From Deltaproteobacteria bacterium UBA4427 (GTDB lineage: Bacteria; Myxococcota_A; UBA9160; UBA4427), in contig DGPZ01000019.1 in the NCBI GenBank assembly GCA_002390675.1, forward strand, positions 6,795 to 70,794: a stretch of DNA of 64,000 nt, in the 5' to 3' direction. The translations under genes were made by a program, and so were the position numbers. Positions 1,290 to 12,948 of the stretch are shown here, piece by piece (within the stretch, counting starts at the first letter, position 1; each line of letters begins with the position of its first letter). Below the pieces are notes generated by a model. The model was not told where the DNA came from, did not search any database, and saw only the letters and a program-made list of their open reading frames with translations.

Positions 1290-3590
1290 ATGTCCAAAAT
1301 GCTCTTGTTGGCTGATGATTCGGTCGTGATTCAGAAACTCGTTGGCCTCTCGTTCGCCAACGAGAACATCGAAATCGTATCGACTGATAACGGGGATGAC
1401 GCCGTTACTATGGCGCGTGATCTGCGCCCCGATATCGTTCTAGCCGACGTCGTGATGCCAGGTCTCAGCGGCTACGAAGTCTGTGAAGCCATCAAACAAG
1501 ATGCCGGTCTCGCACACACGCCCGTGCTACTGCTGACGGGCACGTTCGAGGCCTTCGACGAAGCTCGGGCGGCCGCGGTTGGCGCAAACGGACAAATAAC
1601 GAAGCCCTTCGAAGCGCAAGCGCTCGTCGAGCGCGTGAACGTCGCCATAAATGCATCCGTCGAAGTGCGAGTGTCTGGTGCGAGCCTAGGTTCACAAGAG
1701 ACGACCGTCGGGCCGATTAGCCACGACTTGAGCGCCTCGATCCCGGGTGCGATCAAGAATGCAACATCCCCTTCAAGCGACCTTTTCGAAAGCGGCATAA
1801 CGTCTCTCACCGAAGATCTTTTATTCGACGATGAGACCTCCCTCGACGCGACGTCCTCGATAGCGGTTGGCTTCGAAAATGCGAATGAAGAGACGGCTTC
1901 GGGAGTTTTCGGCTTACCCGAGGATGACGCCAATGATCTGCTCGATACCCAGGGCGGCTCGATAGTCCATGGACAACCGGTGTCCTCGGCGAATGCCGAT
2001 GCATCTTCTACGTTGGGCGCACCGAAGTTGGACCCACCGCGCCCCCCCTTTTCCGAATCCTCGTTGAACGTGACCGACGATTCGGCGATCGACCGCGATC
2101 AGTTGGCTTCACTGGACAACGATTCGCTTGCGCCCCCGCCACTTCCGATCACTACCGCAGCCGAACTCGGCAGCGTGCTCGATGCGGAGGGCATGGACGG
2201 CGACACAACGATTCTCACCGCAAACGATGACATTATTGCGACGACCTCTCCGATTCTTCATGATCCTCTTGGGGATCCCTTCGAGGCGACGGACAGCTTC
2301 GATGATTTGACGGCTCACGCTCATTTGTTAGATATCGACCAGGACGTCGCAACCGCCAACGGCCCCGTATTCAATGACTCTGGCAGCCGTGCTGCTGTCA
2401 GCGCTTTGGATGCGCTGGGTGATCTTGACGCCGACGCGACGATCGTTGCCAACCTCGACGAAGCCCTCGCAGACCCGCGCCTAATCGATGCAGTGCCGGC
2501 CGACTCCGGCTTTACACACGGTCAGTACCCGAGCGCCGATCCTTTCACGCCTAGCGCGATCGCCGCCGCTGAATCGACGATTGTGGAGCCGGATCCTTTG
2601 GGCCCCGTGCCGCCGCGCACCGCGTCTAACGAAGTCGATTTCGCATTCGATGTCTCGGAGCAGATCGCCGCAAACGATCTCTCGGAAACGGCCAGCGAAT
2701 CCTCGGCGTCCCTAGACAACTCCTTCTCCTCATTAATGGACATCTCCGAGTCACAGATTAACTCGGCCTCGCCGGCCGACGCGGGGTCCGCCGTTCCTGA
2801 TGCGACGAACACGATCGGGGGTGACTTCGACGTATCCTCAAATGATCTGGCGACGGCTCCGGTAACGGACCTCATCCAGGCGGAGGACACGATTGCTGGA
2901 GCAGGCGGCAGCCTCGCCGCCGCTCCGATCTCTCAACCCGAAGCGCTGATTGAAATGCCCGAGCTTCCGCAGTCCTATTCCCCCCCGCAGAATGCAGCGG
3001 CCGACGACTCGATCACCGGCAGCGCTTCGCTCTTCGATGACCTCGCCACGGGATCGCCGCTCGATGAGCTTGATGTGCCCAACGCCTTCGCATCCGCTGG
3101 CGATCTAGACATCGACCAGGATCTCCTCAACGACGACCTATCGGTTGGCCTCCGTGCATCAAGGGAAGACTCGGAGACCTTCGAGGCAGATCTCGAACAC
3201 GCAGAGCCCTATTCGACGGACGAGCCCGCAGCTGCCCCTGAATTTATTCGCGCCGTCTCTGACGACGAATTCGACATGGGCGCTCATGCTGATATCGGCA
3301 CTGACTTAGGCGCCGACTTAGGCGCCGAGTCCGGCGCAATAGACGGACTCGGCGGACAGGCTGGCCCCGAAGCGCGTGAGCATTCGGTCCCAGATCTCAC
3401 CCCGATGATGGAACAGCGCATTCAGGAGACCCTCGAAAAAGTCGCCTGGGAAGCCTTCTCCGATCTGTCGGAATCAATCGTCAAGCAGGTCATGGGTCGC
3501 GTGGAGCAGATCGCCTGGGAAGTCATTCCCGAGATGGCCGAGACCCTCGTGCGTGAAGAGATCCGCAAGATGAAGGGCGACGACAAGTAG
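1290..3590 (+). CDS. CheY-like receiver protein with a ~560 aa acidic disordered linker and a short conserved C-terminal helical module (RomR-like architecture)
   Basis: The receiver has DD (LLLADDS), the phospho-acceptor D (VLADVVMPG), T (LLLTG) and K (ITKPF). It is followed by a D/E/S/A/P-rich low-complexity stretch. The C-terminus is EKVAWEAFSDLSESIVKQVMGRVEQIAWEVIPEMAETLVREEIRKM. Confidence 0.85.
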   Translation: MSKMLLLADDSVVIQKLVGLSFANENIEIVSTDNGDDAVTMARDLRPDIVLADVVMPGLSGYEVCEAIKQDAGLAHTPVLLLTGTFEAFDEARAAAVGANGQITKPFEAQALVERVNVAINASVEVRVSGASLGSQETTVGPISHDLSASIPGAIKNATSPSSDLFESGITSLTEDLLFDDETSLDATSSIAVGFENANEETASGVFGLPEDDANDLLDTQGGSIVHGQPVSSANADASSTLGAPKLDPPRPPFSESSLNVTDDSAIDRDQLASLDNDSLAPPPLPITTAAELGSVLDAEGMDGDTTILTANDDIIATTSPILHDPLGDPFEATDSFDDLTAHAHLLDIDQDVATANGPVFNDSGSRAAVSALDALGDLDADATIVANLDEALADPRLIDAVPADSGFTHGQYPSADPFTPSAIAAAESTIVEPDPLGPVPPRTASNEVDFAFDVSEQIAANDLSETASESSASLDNSFSSLMDISESQINSASPADAGSAVPDATNTIGGDFDVSSNDLATAPVTDLIQAEDTIAGAGGSLAAAPISQPEALIEMPELPQSYSPPQNAAADDSITGSASLFDDLATGSPLDELDVPNAFASAGDLDIDQDLLNDDLSVGLRASREDSETFEADLEHAEPYSTDEPAAAPEFIRAVSDDEFDMGAHADIGTDLGADLGAESGAIDGLGGQAGPEAREHSVPDLTPMMEQRIQETLEKVAWEAFSDLSESIVKQVMGRVEQIAWEVIPEMAETLVREEIRKMKGDDK

Positions 3591-6729: not shown

Positions 6730-7911
6730 ATGCACTCTGAGGGATGCCACGTCGCAATTGCCCGGAAAGCACAGGCTTTGGGGAAATGGTGGCCTTTGGA
6801 AGCTCCGGCCGGAAACGGACCGAAGACGGGGAAACACGCGTTGAGCGAGTCAAGCGGAAGCCAGAAGGTGCAGCTCAAGCTGTCGGCGCAGGCGGAGAAA
6901 TATACTCGTCGCGACGCACCTATCGAGGTACGCCAAATGGCCGCCCGCGGGGCGCTGCCTCTTGAGCCCATCGAGCTGGCCACCGTCCTTTTCGTGCTCG
7001 CGAACGATCCCGAGGCTTCGGTCAAAGAGACCGCACGACTGAGTCTCGAGAATCTGACCGTGCACGTTCTTTCGACCGTTCTGAGTGGACCGACGCACCC
7101 GGCTCTGCTCTCCTTCATGGCCCGCGTCCACCAAGAAAACGAGACTCGCTGCGAAGCCCTCGCATTGAATAACTCGACGGATGATCAAACCATCGCCTGG
7201 TTGGCGACCCTGCCGCATAGCCGCGTGGTCGACATCATCAGCCAGAATCAAGAGCGCATGATGCGCACCGAGGACATCGTCGACGCGCTTGGGGCCAACC
7301 CGCTGACCGGACGCGCCGTGATCGAGCGGATCCTGACTTTCCTCGGCCTCGAAGAACGCGATGTCGCAGAAGACACCGAGGAGCTTGGCGAGGCCGAGGC
7401 GGAAGCCGCCGTGCTCGAGTTGCTCGGCGAAGATATGGCGGATGTCGCGAAGCTGCTCGTGCAGGATCGCGAGTCCGATGAAGAGGACGAAGACGTTAAG
7501 ATTAGTCTCTACGCGGCCGTGCAAAACATGACCGTCATGCAAAAGGTCAAGCTTACGCGAATGGGCGGCAAGGACGCCCGTGCGATGCTGATCAAGGATC
7601 GTAATAGAATCGTCTCCGCTTCCGTGCTCGGCAGTCCCAAGCTGACTGAAACAGAAGTCATCGGATTCGCGCAGAACCGCTCGATCGGCGAAGAGTTGTT
7701 GCGCATCATCGCTAGCAACCGAGACTGGACGAAGAATTATAAGGTCAAGTACGCGCTGGTAACGAACCCAAAGACTCCACAGCCGCAAGCGCTTAAGTTC
7801 ATCAATTACCTGCAGGACAAGGATCTGCGAGGACTCATGAAGAGCCGAGAAGTTTCGAGCAATATAAGCGCCCACGCCCGGCGAATCCTGAGCAAGAAGG
7901 GGAAAATCTGA
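6730..7911 (+). CDS. Helical-repeat (HEAT/LRV-like) protein of unknown function, first gene of the GTPase module
   Basis: Repeated 'NP.TP / SPKLTE'-type helical units (KYALVTNPKTPQPQALKFINYL; VLGSPKLTETEVIGFAQNRSI; LFVLANDPEASVKETARLSL) and a central acidic stretch. A more likely start is the GTG at 6868, preceded by GGAAG. Its stop overlaps the next ATG (ATGA-type junction at 7909-7913). Confidence 0.6.
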   Translation: MHSEGCHVAIARKAQALGKWWPLEAPAGNGPKTGKHALSESSGSQKVQLKLSAQAEKYTRRDAPIEVRQMAARGALPLEPIELATVLFVLANDPEASVKETARLSLENLTVHVLSTVLSGPTHPALLSFMARVHQENETRCEALALNNSTDDQTIAWLATLPHSRVVDIISQNQERMMRTEDIVDALGANPLTGRAVIERILTFLGLEERDVAEDTEELGEAEAEAAVLELLGEDMADVAKLLVQDRESDEEDEDVKISLYAAVQNMTVMQKVKLTRMGGKDARAMLIKDRNRIVSASVLGSPKLTETEVIGFAQNRSIGEELLRIIASNRDWTKNYKVKYALVTNPKTPQPQALKFINYLQDKDLRGLMKSREVSSNISAHARRILSKKGKI

Positions 7912-9065
7912 TGGGGGACGTGAATGCGCGCATCCTGCTCTGGGGACTCGAAGGCTCGGGCAAGACCACGACCCTCGAAACCATTCACGCAAAGCTTCGC
8001 GAAGACCTGCGAGGCCCCCTGCGACGCGAAACCACGCGCCTTGACCCGACAGTCTTTTTCGAATCGCTTTCGATCACGCTAGGCGAAGTCGGAGGTGTCG
8101 GAACGCAGCTCGACTTAATCGCGGTGCCCGGTGCATCCGACCAGGTCATGACGCGCAAGCAGCTGCTCGACGAGGTCGACGGGATCGTACTCGTGCTCGA
8201 TTGCTCCGCGGAACGGATCGAAGACAACTGCGAAAGTATCGCGGAACTCCGGGCATCACTCGAAGCCTATGGCCGAACTCTCGAAACCTTCCCGGTCGTG
8301 CTCCAGTACAATAAGCGCGACATCGCCGACCCCTTCGCTATCGAAGACCTGCATCGCCGTATCGGTCTTGAGCAGTGCGCTGTATTTGAATCCATCGCCA
8401 CGACAGGCCACGGCATCCTTCCGACACTTACTACGATTTCAAAGCACGTCGTGCGCGCACGACGTGGCGCGAGTCAGGAGATCGACCCGGCGGTAGCTGC
8501 TGCCGCAGCGATCGGCGCGGCCTCCCCGGCGGCACCGATCGATCTGCCGTCCCCGCCGATCGAGATGCTTGCGAACTCTGCCGGGGGTCTAGAGATCCCA
8601 GAACTAACGCCCCTGAAATTGGGTAAAGAGCTGGGCGACCCGACCGAAGCAGAACTCGCCGGTGAGATCCTCGAAGCGGTCTCTGTCGCGGAAAACGCCC
8701 CTGACGAATCCGTATTCGAAGCCGAATCATTCGAAGCCATATCGACTGCGGAACTCTTCGAATCCGCCATCCTAGCGGAAGGCGAGCAGGAGAGCTTTCA
8801 GGCATTAGGCGCAGTCGAAATAGACCTTTCAGACGACGAGATCGACGCTTGGTCGGCGATCGACGAGCAAGTCGAGAAACCCACGAACTCTCTCGGTGAA
8901 CTCCGCATCGTCTCAGCAGGCCGAGCGACCGTCGAGGCGGATGGCGGCCTCCGTTTACCGCTGGTGCTCGGTGATGAATCTGGCGCGTCGCGCAGCATCG
9001 TACTTTCACTACGACTCGATTCACTAATCGCATCCGATGTATCCGATGCGCGGTTGGACGACTAA
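7911..9065 (+). CDS. MglA-family Ras-like small GTPase paralog with a ~190 aa acidic C-terminal extension
   Basis: Collinear with M. xanthus MglA: P-loop GLEGSGKT, PTVFFESLSITLGEV (MglA RTLFFDFLPLSLGEI), AVPGA (MglA TVPGQ), VDGIVLVLD, VLQYNKRDIADP (MglA VIQYNKRDLPNA). The C-terminal half is D/E/A/S-rich. Confidence 0.8.
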   Translation: MGDVNARILLWGLEGSGKTTTLETIHAKLREDLRGPLRRETTRLDPTVFFESLSITLGEVGGVGTQLDLIAVPGASDQVMTRKQLLDEVDGIVLVLDCSAERIEDNCESIAELRASLEAYGRTLETFPVVLQYNKRDIADPFAIEDLHRRIGLEQCAVFESIATTGHGILPTLTTISKHVVRARRGASQEIDPAVAAAAAIGAASPAAPIDLPSPPIEMLANSAGGLEIPELTPLKLGKELGDPTEAELAGEILEAVSVAENAPDESVFEAESFEAISTAELFESAILAEGEQESFQALGAVEIDLSDDEIDAWSAIDEQVEKPTNSLGELRIVSAGRATVEADGGLRLPLVLGDESGASRSIVLSLRLDSLIASDVSDARLDD

Positions 9066-11344
9066 TGCGCCGTCGTCTCGGCATTTGGGGCGCCTCTGAG
9101 GAGTCGCTTCGACTCCTGCGCCTGCTGTCGGGCAATCCGGACGTCGAGGTGCTGCGCATCTTTGACGACTCCGTCGCGAGCGCTCTCGAACGAGCGCGCG
9201 GCATAGGGACCGCCCTCGCCCATCAAGTCGCTCCGCTTCTGCTCGACGACGAAGCTGCTTTTTTCGCCGAAACTGAATTCGATGCAATCATCGATGCGCG
9301 AGGCGACTTCGCGAGTCACGTGCCGGCCGGGCCACGCTCCGCCATTCAGGCTGTCACGCCACTCACCGCACGGCTACTTTGGGGTTACGGCGTTGCGCCG
9401 AGGGATCGCAAAGCTGAGCTCCTGCAGGCGCTGCATGAAGTTGTCGAGTCTGTCGACATGACCGTCGCGGCGGACGAACTCTTCGAGCGCATGCTTGAGA
9501 TCGCAGTCGGAGTCACTGGCGCTGAAGGCGGAAGCCTTATGCTTCTCGATCCCCGCGCAAACGTACTTCGCATTCGAGTCGCACAGGGCGTCGAACCCGA
9601 GTTGTGGCCAAAGATTCGCGTCGAACTCGGACAGGGTATCTCCGGACGCGTCGCCGCAGAAGGTCGACCGATCCATCTTCGCGGGCGAGCGGATGGCGCA
9701 AACTACGATCTACTCCGCGAGCGCGTTGACGTCGAGTCTGCGCTCTGTGTCCCCATGATTCATCATGGCAAGGTGCTAGGCGTCATCAACGTCCATCATT
9801 CACAGCGCGCCGATGTTTTTTCCGACGACGACCTCGCCTTCATGGAACAGCTCGCATCCCTCGATGCGCAGATCATTGCCCGCGCGCAAGAGCACGAGAG
9901 CCTCCGTAGTCAGGCTGCCCGCTACGACGCTATTCGCGAGGTGCAGCGCATCCTCAGCGGCGCAGCGAGCCTGACTGACCGCCTAGAAGAATTCTGCCGC
10001 TTCGTCGCGGAACGAGCTGGCCAAGGCATCGCACAGCTCTACTTGCGAGAAACGGATGGCGAACTCCGCATGGTCGCGACCTCCCTCGAGGGCAGCGGTT
10101 TCGGTGGTGAGTATCGACTTCCGCCGGACGCCGGTGTGGATGGCGACGCAGTTCGTCATCAAAGACCTGCTCTTCTGCGGTACGAAGACGGACGTATCGG
10201 CTACGCCGCGCTTCCTTTGGTAGCGGGCAAGCAACTGGTCGGCCTTCTTTCGCTCCAGGCCGGCGCGACTTCCGAACAGAATCGTGGAACCCTCGAATCC
10301 TGGCAAGAAATAGCTGCGGCAGCCGCCGACACCATCGCGCGCCGCAACAAAGAAGCGCGCATGGCCACCCAGGCCGAACGCGTCAACGTCATCAATGAGA
10401 CCTCAATCCGGATGCTCTCTTGCAAGGAACCTAACGAGGTCGCACGCCTCGCCACGTCTTCGGCGTCGATGATCCTCGAAGGTGATCACGCCATCTTGCG
10501 CCTGCAAGACCCGACGACGCGCCGTTATTCGATTCGCTCCTATTTCGGAGCCGCAGACGGCGAAGCGCAGGAAGCTCTCTTCCGGCTCGATAAGGCAGTG
10601 ACCGTCGACACCATCAGACGACGAGCGGCCCATCTCATACAAGACGCGAGCCTCGAACCTCAGCTCGGCGAGTTCGTCGACGAAATACGTTCGGTACTCA
10701 GTGCGCCCATCAAACGAAACGGCGAAGTAGTCGGCACCCTTGCGGTTTATGACAAGGTCGCGCTCGATCGGTTCTTTGCGAGCCGTTTCGATGATGAAGA
10801 TTTGCAGGTCTTCGGGCGCTTTATTTCGTACGTCGAGCGCGCGCTCGACCACGCACTCTCTCACCGTGAGAACCGCCAGAACCGGAACTTCGACGAAGAA
10901 ACCGGGCTCCCCAACGACAACTATCTCGGCAAGCGGCTCTCAGAAGAAATCGCGCGTGCCGCAGGACGCGAAAATGCCTTAGCCCTCTGCGTCTGCAAAC
11001 TCGAGAACCGCGCAGAGCTGACGGCCGAGGCGGGTGCGACTCATGTGGGTCGAATCATCGCTCTTCTCGCTGAATCCCTGAAGACCCATCTGCGGGAATT
11101 CGACGTACTCGCCCGCATCGATCGCGACGAATTCGCGGTCCTCATGCCCGAGCCAGGCCGTACGCCGGGAGAGCGAGTTTTTGAACTCGCCCGCGCCGTC
11201 GCGGACGAGGTTTCGAAGAACGAGTCTCTCAACCAACCGCTTCGAATAGGCCTAGCCTTCGGCTACGGAGTTCATCCCACGGATGGCGACGACCGCGAAT
11301 CTCTCATTAGGCATGCCCGAGAACCGCGCATCCGGATGGTCTAG
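9065..11344 (+). CDS. Multi-GAF protein with a C-terminal degenerate GGDEF domain (A-site DRDEF, I-site REFD retained)
   Basis: GAF signatures (GAEGGSLMLLDPRANVLRIRVAQG..GISGRVAAEGRPIHL..SALCVPMIHHGKVLGVINVHHS, plus further GAF-like blocks). GGDEF-domain start ETGLPNDNYLGKRL. Core LREFDVLARIDRDEFAVLMPE. TAATG overlap with the upstream GTPase gene. Confidence 0.8.
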   Translation: MRRRLGIWGASEESLRLLRLLSGNPDVEVLRIFDDSVASALERARGIGTALAHQVAPLLLDDEAAFFAETEFDAIIDARGDFASHVPAGPRSAIQAVTPLTARLLWGYGVAPRDRKAELLQALHEVVESVDMTVAADELFERMLEIAVGVTGAEGGSLMLLDPRANVLRIRVAQGVEPELWPKIRVELGQGISGRVAAEGRPIHLRGRADGANYDLLRERVDVESALCVPMIHHGKVLGVINVHHSQRADVFSDDDLAFMEQLASLDAQIIARAQEHESLRSQAARYDAIREVQRILSGAASLTDRLEEFCRFVAERAGQGIAQLYLRETDGELRMVATSLEGSGFGGEYRLPPDAGVDGDAVRHQRPALLRYEDGRIGYAALPLVAGKQLVGLLSLQAGATSEQNRGTLESWQEIAAAAADTIARRNKEARMATQAERVNVINETSIRMLSCKEPNEVARLATSSASMILEGDHAILRLQDPTTRRYSIRSYFGAADGEAQEALFRLDKAVTVDTIRRRAAHLIQDASLEPQLGEFVDEIRSVLSAPIKRNGEVVGTLAVYDKVALDRFFASRFDDEDLQVFGRFISYVERALDHALSHRENRQNRNFDEETGLPNDNYLGKRLSEEIARAAGRENALALCVCKLENRAELTAEAGATHVGRIIALLAESLKTHLREFDVLARIDRDEFAVLMPEPGRTPGERVFELARAVADEVSKNESLNQPLRIGLAFGYGVHPTDGDDRESLIRHAREPRIRMV

Positions 11345-11351
11345 GCGTCCG

Positions 11352-11510
11352 CGCCGTACGTAGCTCTTCCATATCCGGCAGTAGTTCGCGGCAAGCAATC
11401 AGCCCGAAGTCCAGTTGATCTCGGTAGCTCACGACGGTCACATTTAGCCCCTGACCGTCCGTAATCGCAGAGGCCGGATAGTAGGTCTGCGTTCCCGACC
11501 ACCCACAAGC
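11352..11510 (-). pseudogene. C-terminal relic of a WS/DGAT acyltransferase gene
   Basis: Minus-strand translation TQTYYPASAITDGQGLNVTVVSYRDQLDFGLIACRELLPDMEELRTA matches the C-terminal block of the two full WS/DGAT genes in this window (GLGITVMSYAGSLFFSFNCDPDIVPD; GLNITVLSYCGELHFGLVHDPALVPE). Nothing N-terminal to it is recognisable. Confidence 0.55.
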
Positions 11511-11691
11511 GACTCGCGGGGACGCGGCAAGTTCGAGATGATCCCGTTGGGCAAGCGCGCAGTGAGCCCCCGCCGCCGCGCGACACGCTCTATCCCAAAC
11601 GCAACGAGGGGGCGGCCAAATTGGCCACCCCCTCGTATGGAGTTCAGATCCTAAGCACGGCAGAACCGCCCTCACGTGATCTCGTACAGAC

Positions 11692-12948
11692 TTACTTCGT
11701 GTAGGCCTCAATCAGGACGTCTGAGGTCTCGGGCCGCATGATGCGCGGGTCCGGGCGTTCGCCGGCCTGCAGCATGGAGCGAACCTTCGTTCCGGAGATC
11801 CCAAAGGGCTTCTCGTCTTTGTGACGCTCGGTGAGGTCGACTCGGCCGAGGCTCTCGTAGAAGGCTGCGAAGCCGACCTTGCAGGCCTGGATCGAGAGAT
11901 CGCCGGGCAGCTTGTCGAAGATCTCATGGGCATCGAAGTCGCCCCAGATCGCTTCGCCATCTTCGAAGGGTGCGTCGGCGTGCTTGCGGCCGATCACGAT
12001 GTCCGAGAAGCCATAGTTCTGTCGGTAAATGCCGTGCATGACCGCTTCTGAAGGACCGCCGTAGAACATCTTGATATCGAGACCGATCAGCTCGAAGACA
12101 TCCGAGATGTCGTAGCCAGCCTTGTCCCAGATCGCCTGATCCTTGTCGCCTTCGCCGAGCAGACCCTCGCCGTGCAGTCGTCGGTAGCAGAGCATGCGCG
12201 TGGCGGCGGGAACGTCATCGCCCTTGAGCTCACCCATCAACGGGTTGAGTACGGCGCCAGCAAAATGTCCGGCGGCCGTGAGGGCTTCCACGCCGTATAC
12301 GAGTGCGTATTCATGTGCGCGATGAAGCGGGTTGCGAGTCTGGAATGCCAGCGCGCGTTCCCACTTCTTGCCGCGGATAAATTCTCGGGTCATTCGGGGC
12401 GAGAGCATGAACTCGCCGTAGGCCGAATTCCGGGGCTGGGGCAGAGCGCGGAGCGTGCCGCCGATCAGCTTGCCTCGGTCGTCGTTCGCGACGATGCGGC
12501 CACCGGGATGATCAACGCGCTCAGTGCCATAAACGCACTGGAGATACTTGGGCTTGTCCCAGTCAAAGACTTCCAGGTCTTCGATGATTGCGACGATATT
12601 GCCCGCCTCCGTCTTCACAGCGCAGGCGCCGCCAGCAGAGAGCGTTCCGGCTTCGACGTCGGTCAGCGGGAGCGAAATCGGAATGGTCCAGGCGTATCGT
12701 CCGCCCTCGGAGAGAATAACCTTCTCGTCGAGCGAGAGATCAAAGGCCGCCTTCTTCATAGGGCCGGTGAGCGGCGAAAGCGCGCCGTCGGCGATGCGGT
12801 AAATGGTCGAGAGATCGGCATCGGTCACGCGGATCGACGGGAGGCCACCGGCCTCGGACAGGAATGCCGCTTGGTCCTTGAAGGAGACAATGCGGTCGAC
12901 GGGCTCGGTAAGGCCACCGTGGACGGGAACGAGATCTTGCTGGCTCAT
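11692..12948 (-). CDS. sat: Sulfate adenylyltransferase (ATP sulfurylase)
   Basis: [17 protein letters not shown] motif, PUA-like N-terminal domain, length 418 aa. Confidence 0.9.

Follow-up and report, generated by a model that had tools for sequence, protein, structure and literature searches.

The locus and its genes

The present analyses concern a gene for an MglA-derived G protein that lacks the catalytic Gly, Arg and Gln residues of MglA, located at positions 7911..9065 (+ strand) of a 64,000-nucleotide (nt) stretch of DNA from Deltaproteobacteria bacterium UBA4427 (assembly GCA_002390675.1, contig DGPZ01000019.1, positions 6,795 to 70,794); this whole stretch is referred to below as the window. 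The open reading frame (ORF) has 384 codons, and its product of 384 amino acids (aa) consists of a G domain (residues 1–190; 7911..8480, +), an acidic linker (residues 191–326; 8481..8888, +) and a C-terminal β module (residues 327–372; 8889..9026, +). It is preceded by a gene for a 356 aa protein that is modeled as an ARM/HEAT-like α-solenoid (6841..7911, +), and it is followed by a gene for a 759 aa GAF-GGDEF protein (9065..11344, +). The genes overlap by 1 nt at both junctions, the stop/start sequences being TGATG between the solenoid and G-protein genes (7909..7913, +) and TAATG between the G-protein and GAF-GGDEF genes (9063..9067, +), and the G-protein gene is translationally coupled to the solenoid gene upstream of it.

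Relationship to MglA and replacement of the catalytic residues

The only protein structures matched by the product of 7911–9065 in phmmer searches of PDB chains were those of MglA (viz. 5YMX, 6H17, and 6HJH from M. xanthus and 3T12 from T. thermophilus), with E values from 8e-32 to 1e-30. Residues 3–183 of the query align with residues 10–190 of M. xanthus MglA over 181 residues with zero gaps and a constant offset of +7; hence, residue n of the G protein corresponds to residue n+7 of MglA and the equivalences between the two proteins are fixed. A preliminary description of this gene, made from the sequence alone, had reported a gap-free match to M. xanthus MglA in the G3/switch II region, and the absence of gaps is now seen to extend over the whole alignment. 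The G domain matches the Pfam family Arf (4.6e-08), and NCBIfam has no model for MglA or for the dead-G-protein family described here, only its generic small_GTP domain being matched, below the cut-off. In an AlphaFold model built with 68 homologues the G domain is predicted confidently (predicted local distance difference test, pLDDT, ~85–93), and a Foldseek search with the modeled domain returned MglA throughout its top 12 matches, the best being the MglA-GTPγS structure 6H17 (E 2e-15, template modeling (TM) score 0.77 on the target), which confirms the MglA fold. The insertion between G1 and G2 that is characteristic of the bacterial proteins (switch-I insertion) is present, as in MglA.

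The fixed alignment places unusual residues at all three sites on which the MglA switch depends. The P-loop GLEGSGKT (7944..7967, +) carries Glu14 (7950–7952) at the position of Gly21 in MglA and Gly12 in Ras. In the switch I/G2 segment TRLDPTVFFE (8034..8063, +), Pro46 (8046–8048) is found at the position of the Arg53 finger and Thr47 at that of the Mg-binding Thr54, while Ala75 (8133–8135) in the G3/switch II segment AVPGASDQVMTRKQ (8121..8162, +) occupies the site of the catalytic Gln82. The assignments of Pro46, Thr47, and Ala75 had been proposed in the preliminary description; the phmmer alignment bears them out, placing Pro and Ala, not Arg and Gln, at the two catalytic positions, and the codons of Pro46 and Ala75 were verified in the DNA. 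The equivalences of Glu14 with Gly21, of Ala71 with Thr78 and of Glu51 with Asp58 extend that description. Two further residues in these segments, Arg43 in switch I and Gln78 in switch II (the latter at a position of Gln or His), are specific for the family. The G4 motif NKRD, which determines guanine specificity, is intact (8310..8321, +), and G5 and an acidic residue at the Asp58 site are also kept.

Conservation of the substitutions and phylogenetic position of the family

More than 540 homologues, 211–672 residues in length, were identified in a large protein collection, and residue counts were made on the best 120 of these (52–100% identity). In this set Pro46 is present in 120/120 and Ala75 in 116/120 sequences, and Gly is found at position 14 in 0/120. 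The residues required for nucleotide binding are similarly conserved, viz. Lys18 (119/120), Asn134 (119/120), Lys135 (118/120), and Arg136 (118–119/120), together with an almost invariant Thr or Ser in G2; Asp137 is invariant in a 68-row alignment, in which about 70 columns, including some in the C-terminal module, show no variation. Since they are fixed across homologues, the substitutions at the catalytic sites are not due to chance.

To place the family in a wider context, G domains were gathered both by searching whole genomes of the phylum and by scanning species-representative genomes, and 41 distinct family members were compared with 75 canonical MglA-like sequences from several phyla. 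The residue pattern at the catalytic sites is sharply bimodal. At the Arg53 site, Pro is found in 38 of the 41 family members and Arg in all 75 canonical sequences; at the Gln82 site, the family has Ala, Gly, Glu, Ser, Asn, Asp, or Thr and never Gln, which is present in 75/75 canonical sequences; and the Gly21 site contains Glu (26 members), Ala (8), Asp (3), or other residues in the family but never Gly, the residue of 71/75 canonical proteins. In a maximum-likelihood tree, which is unrooted, the family and the canonical MglA-like sequences lie on either side of one branch that has a long stem and a Shimodaira–Hasegawa-like approximate likelihood ratio test (SH-aLRT) support of 100. The family has a single origin. 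Its narrow range, compared with the multi-phylum range of canonical MglA, makes descent from a catalytic Group-1 MglA ancestor most likely.

The motifs for nucleotide binding show a different pattern in the family at large. Some part of these motifs is missing in 11 of the 41 members, and the losses are located on separate branches of the tree. In place of the P-loop Thr, one small clade has Arg and one other member Leu, and three members have Val or Thr where the P-loop Lys would be; the NKxD motif, kept in 37/41, reads NHRD, NFRD, or NKRG in the remaining four. Within the single genus of G133 (locus L157) and G143 (L160), one of the two genomes has the P-loop GPQGTGKT and the other reads GPESVNTLG, with neither the P-loop Lys nor the Thr and thus no recognizable P-loop. 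The losses have left the gene itself in place, with its length, position, and C-terminal module kept, as would be expected of a conserved function that does not depend on a GTPase cycle. The sequence pattern thus points to a drift of the family toward pseudoGTPases.

The C-terminal tail

The preliminary description had noted a ~190 aa extension rich in Asp and Glu that is absent from MglA. The tail (residues 191–384, 194 aa) is indeed acidic, with 21% Asp+Glu and only 9 Lys+Arg, but it is not merely so. Its variable linker (23% Asp+Glu) is predicted to be disordered (pLDDT <50) except for a helix at residues 276–292 (8736–8786, +), which stands out in both the conservation profile and the AlphaFold model, and it is followed by the three-stranded β module (pLDDT ~90; strands at residues 332–336, 346–354, and 360–368), in which many alignment columns are invariant or nearly so across the family. 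The conserved helix and the β module make the tail more than an acidic extension. No Pfam family and no usable Atlas match were found for residues 276–384.

The operon and its conservation

The longest ORF of the solenoid gene begins at ATG 6730, and conservation among orthologues begins at about residue 45 of that ORF. For this reason translation more probably starts at TTG 6841, which is preceded at 7 nt by a GGGGAA box. The protein is modeled with ~25 short helices (pLDDT 85.5) and contains many invariant Arg, Asn, and Gln residues. It belongs to no Pfam or NCBIfam family, and fold searches returned only generic ARM/HEAT/alphaRep matches (Foldseek TM ~0.2; VIA Z ≤6.5), which are below the level that is meaningful for repeat proteins. 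The solenoid family is represented in 265 of the 301 genomes sampled from the phylum, in most cases with no G protein beside it; the solenoid protein is older than the three-gene module, and the possibility that it is a dedicated partner of the G protein is ruled out by this distribution. A complex prediction for the solenoid protein with the G domain (residues 1–190), GTP, and Mg (score 0.21, mark 0.32) argues neither for nor against binding.

The GAF-GGDEF protein contains up to three stretches matching Pfam GAF_2 and a degenerate GGDEF domain. The A-site of the latter reads DRDEF (11120–11134, +; coordinates verified), and an I-site of the form RxxD, REFD (11093–11104, +), is kept five residues upstream of it. 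All 12 orthologues examined combine a degenerate A-site with an intact RxxD, a pattern by which the protein is predicted to be an inactive-looking cyclase that serves as a receptor for cyclic di-GMP (c-di-GMP). Its N-terminal part (9065–9460, +; ~130 residues) has no Pfam match and is conserved, the tblastn alignments of orthologues starting at residues 1–6.

The gene order birA, coaX, solenoid gene, G-protein gene is found at 14 of 14 loci across the order and the class. A GAF-GGDEF gene follows the G-protein gene at 13 of these (no GAF-GGDEF match followed at L036), and sat is present at 10. In many relatives a gene for an EF-G-like GTPase (708 aa; L126:2185–4311, +) lies between coaX and the solenoid gene, and at L028–L037 a gap of 2.2 kb separates these two genes; the window and its closest relatives have no EF-G-like gene at this place.

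Distribution of the family and other MglA genes of the genome

Most occurrences of the family are in a single class of uncultured Myxococcota. Its range was sampled in the 301 genomes of the phylum mentioned above, using E at most 1e-36 as the cut-off for a match better than canonical MglA, and of the 57 genomes sampled from the window's class, 48 have such a match. One genus has a further-diverged copy at the same place. Longer and more divergent copies that also lack the catalytic residues occur in other families of the phylum, viz. in G044 (L119:7180–9843, +; 887 aa) and G292 (L159; open frame of 761 aa). In these copies the Gly21 site is Lys or Gly, the Arg site is Pro, and the Gln is missing; they come immediately behind coaX and the solenoid gene, and in G044, phoH and a 7TM-HD gene follow in place of the GAF-GGDEF gene. 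No Pfam domain was found in the long C-terminal part of either copy. These two copies speak against a confinement of the family to one class. The named records that carry the family are all metagenome-assembled and are labeled "Myxococcota bacterium" or "Deltaproteobacteria bacterium."

The genome to which the window belongs (4.86 Mb, 95% complete) also contains a canonical mglB-mglA pair, which adjoins recR on another contig. The profile PF03259 (Roadblock) matches a single gene in this genome, the mglB beside canonical mglA, and no Roadblock gene was found by Pfam in the operon of the solenoid, G-protein, and GAF-GGDEF genes. A third gene of the MglA type (L003:1399–2055, -; contig C28) encodes a 218 aa protein that keeps the Arg finger and TVPGQ. 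This paralogue has Ala at the Gly21 site, a short C-terminal extension, and a very long branch in the tree, and its gene adjoins that of a P-loop GTPase resembling MeaB/ArgK.

Comparison with known MglA proteins and pseudoGTPases

In the published classification of the MglA family, all members of Group 1 have a conserved Arg finger and a G3 motif TVPGQ, and members of Groups 2–5 have Thr-Thr in G2 and GTPGQ in G3 (PMC4316618). The window protein resembles Group 1 (PMC4316618) in its fold, the length of its G domain and its gap-free alignment, as well as in the switch-I insertion, the xVPGx frame of G3, NKRD, and the G2 Thr. It differs from this group by the absence of the Arg finger (Pro46-Thr47), a G3 that reads AVPGA instead of TVPGQ, Glu14 and Ala71, the lack of a coupled mglB, and the 194 aa tail with its conserved β module. 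Its G2 (DPT) and G3 fit neither feature of Groups 2–5. With both the Arg finger and TVPGQ missing, it is best described as Group-1-derived and not as a plain member of Group 1. Other paralogues, viz. SofG, the 218 aa paralogue, and the copy of G197 (L038), likewise coexist with canonical MglA, and some of them have terminal extensions as does the window protein; those examined here keep the Arg finger and TVPGQ and are thus, by sequence, cycling GTPases.

The closest functional precedent is the MglA hub of Bdellovibrio, in which an MglA with Ser21, the tetratricopeptide repeat (TPR) protein Bd2492, RomR, and the degenerate-GGDEF receptor CdgA cooperate at the invasive pole (PMC3983030). The likeness consists of a non-Gly residue at position 21, the absence of a dedicated MglB, and the association of a helical-repeat protein with a degenerate GGDEF protein, which in our case is one of gene linkage only. 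Unlike the window protein, Bdellovibrio MglA keeps Arg53 and Gln82, there is no other MglA in that genome, and the genes for the partners do not form one operon; the helical-repeat partner in the window is ARM/HEAT-like and not a TPR protein, and its GGDEF protein has GAF domains. In M. xanthus, MglA-GTP is also reported to work through a TPR protein, SgmX.

The window protein also follows the pattern of pseudoGTPases, which we can judge by sequence only: the catalytic residues are absent and GxxxxGKT, Thr47, and NKRD are intact. Among eukaryotes, the Rnd proteins and RhoH carry substitutions of Gly12 and Gln61 and are regarded as constitutively GTP-bound proteins that are controlled in other ways. 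The similarity to Rnd and RhoH is one of functional analogy only, as these proteins form an unrelated lineage. In the HAS-GTPases a hydrophobic residue is conserved in place of the Gln and catalysis relies on an alternative arrangement; at this site the window protein has Ala and the family as a whole the variable set of residues given above. Our literature searches found no description of an MglA-type bacterial pseudoGTPase, of an operon combining an MglA-like gene with a GGDEF gene, or of a clade of this kind.

A putative non-cycling G protein and alternative explanations

We favor, with moderate confidence, the interpretation that the window protein is a non-cycling, nucleotide-bound G protein that would act as an adaptor rather than as a timed switch. 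Glu, Pro, and Ala occupy the positions of Gly21, Arg53, and Gln82, sites where one substitution is enough to hold MglA or Ras in its GTP form. In M. xanthus, MglA Q82L binds GTP, does not hydrolyze it, and is insensitive to MglB (PMC2907295), in agreement with the Q82L part of the earlier statement that Q82 mutants are GTP-locked, and a non-Gly residue at position 21 was the basis for proposing that Bdellovibrio MglA is permanently GTP-bound (PMC3983030). MglB acts by repositioning the Arg53 loop into the active site of MglA (PMC6876712), a mechanism that is unusable here since Arg53 is absent. The window copy retains all the motifs that Mg-GTP binding requires (viz. the P-loop Lys and Thr, the G2 Thr, the acidic residue at the Asp58 site, NKRD, and G5), and it would be expected to bind GTP without hydrolyzing it and to stay permanently in an "on"-like, nucleotide-bound conformation. 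The suggestion of the preliminary description that the protein is a constitutively GTP-bound scaffold or pseudoGTPase is favored, over its alternative of a different GAP, by the replacement of all three residues, by the fixation of these replacements in a monophyletic family, and by the finding of only one Roadblock gene in the genome, but the label "GTP-locked" suits the window copy, whose nucleotide motifs are intact, and not the family at large, of which 11/41 members lack a motif.

In the mechanism that we propose, the solenoid protein (as a scaffold), the G protein, and the GAF-GGDEF protein would probably form a signaling hub, in which c-di-GMP or a GAF ligand acting through the inactive-looking cyclase would provide the regulated input in place of GTP hydrolysis, and the acidic linker with the C-terminal β module would add a second docking element. 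The analyses establish the residues, their conservation, the fold, the single origin, and the operon; GTP binding, the absence of hydrolysis, a physical complex of the three operon products, an input by c-di-GMP, and any role in polarity are inferred from sequence.

A number of observations weigh against this interpretation. In some GTPase families a hydrophobic residue takes the place of the Gln and GTP is still hydrolyzed, and Ala at this site does not by itself prove inactivity. A working enzyme would likewise be compatible with the strong conservation of the nucleotide motifs among close relatives. At position 43, occupied by Glu or Asp in canonical MglA, 36 of the 41 family members have Arg, and at position 78, where canonical MglA has Tyr, 33/41 have Gln or His; these two residues might be a relocated catalytic pair. 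As the tree is unrooted, descent from Group 1 is an indirect conclusion. Lastly, the locus in the genus of G133 and G143 comprises a G-protein gene without a GGDEF gene, and one genome lacks both genes there, indicating that the module is dispensable in some lineages.

The most serious of the alternatives, which we nevertheless regard as unlikely, is that the protein is a working GTPase, either with an active site rewired around Arg43, Gln/His78, and perhaps Glu14, or with a GTPase-activating protein (GAP) supplied in trans by the solenoid or the GAF-GGDEF protein. The retention of these family-specific residues would be accounted for in this manner, the alternation of Gln and His being what a water-positioning residue could show, and so would the strong constraint on the nucleotide-binding motifs in the window's near relatives. 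RapGAP, which supplies an Asn to Rap, a protein without the catalytic Gln, provides a model for a GAP in trans, and the invariant Arg, Asn, and Gln residues of the solenoid protein are numerous. Arg43 and His78 are also kept, however, in members that have no P-loop Lys (L032 and L022), which favors a structural or binding role for them; moreover, the residue at the Gln site is too variable to be a defined substitute, and the loss of a nucleotide motif in 11/41 members, and of the whole P-loop in one further copy, is hard to reconcile with an essential cycle.

These same losses, independently affecting the P-loop Lys and Thr and NKxD and leading to a total loss of the P-loop in one genome, could instead indicate that the G domain is no more than a folded interaction module that binds no nucleotide, in the window copy as elsewhere, and the acidic Glu at the Gly21 site, which would adjoin the position of the γ-phosphate, is consistent with this. 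Such a reading is still less probable for the window copy, as the near invariance of the P-loop Lys, the G2 Thr/Ser, and NKRD in this copy and its 120 closest homologues argues for selection on nucleotide binding. That the gene is simply a decaying, functionless duplicate of mglA is very improbable: the catalytic residues are lost and the gene was not found at the locus in one genome of the family, but the frame of 384 codons is intact, more than 540 homologues exist, the ~70 invariant columns of the 68-sequence alignment include the C-terminal module, and both the translational coupling and the synteny are conserved across the class.

Evolutionary significance

MglA is the model for a Ras-like switch in bacterial polarity, and its mechanism rests on Gly21, Arg53, Gln82, and the GAP MglB. 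A natural clade with all three residues replaced would be a ready-made "locked" MglA, with some lineages also losing nucleotide binding, and it would reveal the capabilities of a non-cycling MglA fold, for which engineered mutants have been the only approach so far. The clade would also extend the 2014 picture in which every Group 1 member has the conserved Arg finger. Beyond the adaptor function favored above for the window protein, it is possible, although we propose this only tentatively, that these proteins are a small Ras-like pseudoGTPase family, the first to be described in bacteria, in which a duplicate of MglA without a cycle has been fixed as one subunit of the three-protein hub, the role of hydrolysis has passed to a second messenger or GAF ligand, and different lineages are at different stages of losing the nucleotide. 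The fixed operon would provide a testable link between small G proteins and c-di-GMP signaling, with parallels to the predation hub of Bdellovibrio; the carriers, all uncultured Myxococcota, limit the ways in which this can be pursued.

Other genes of the window

A gene for a receiver protein of 766 aa is located at 1290–3590 (+), 4.3 kb upstream of the three-gene module. Its Response_reg domain comprises residues 6–117 and no other domain is recognized in the protein, which has a very long acidic linker. In the preliminary description it is called RomR-like, with a receiver, a long acidic linker, and a short conserved C-terminus; such a candidate is of interest here since RomR belongs to the MglA hubs of both Myxococcus and Bdellovibrio. 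Between the GAF-GGDEF gene and sat, an ORF at 11307–11711 (-) ends in a sequence resembling the C-terminus of a WS/DGAT acyltransferase, and its upstream part resembles the translation of non-coding DNA, which is consistent with its earlier description as a gene relic.

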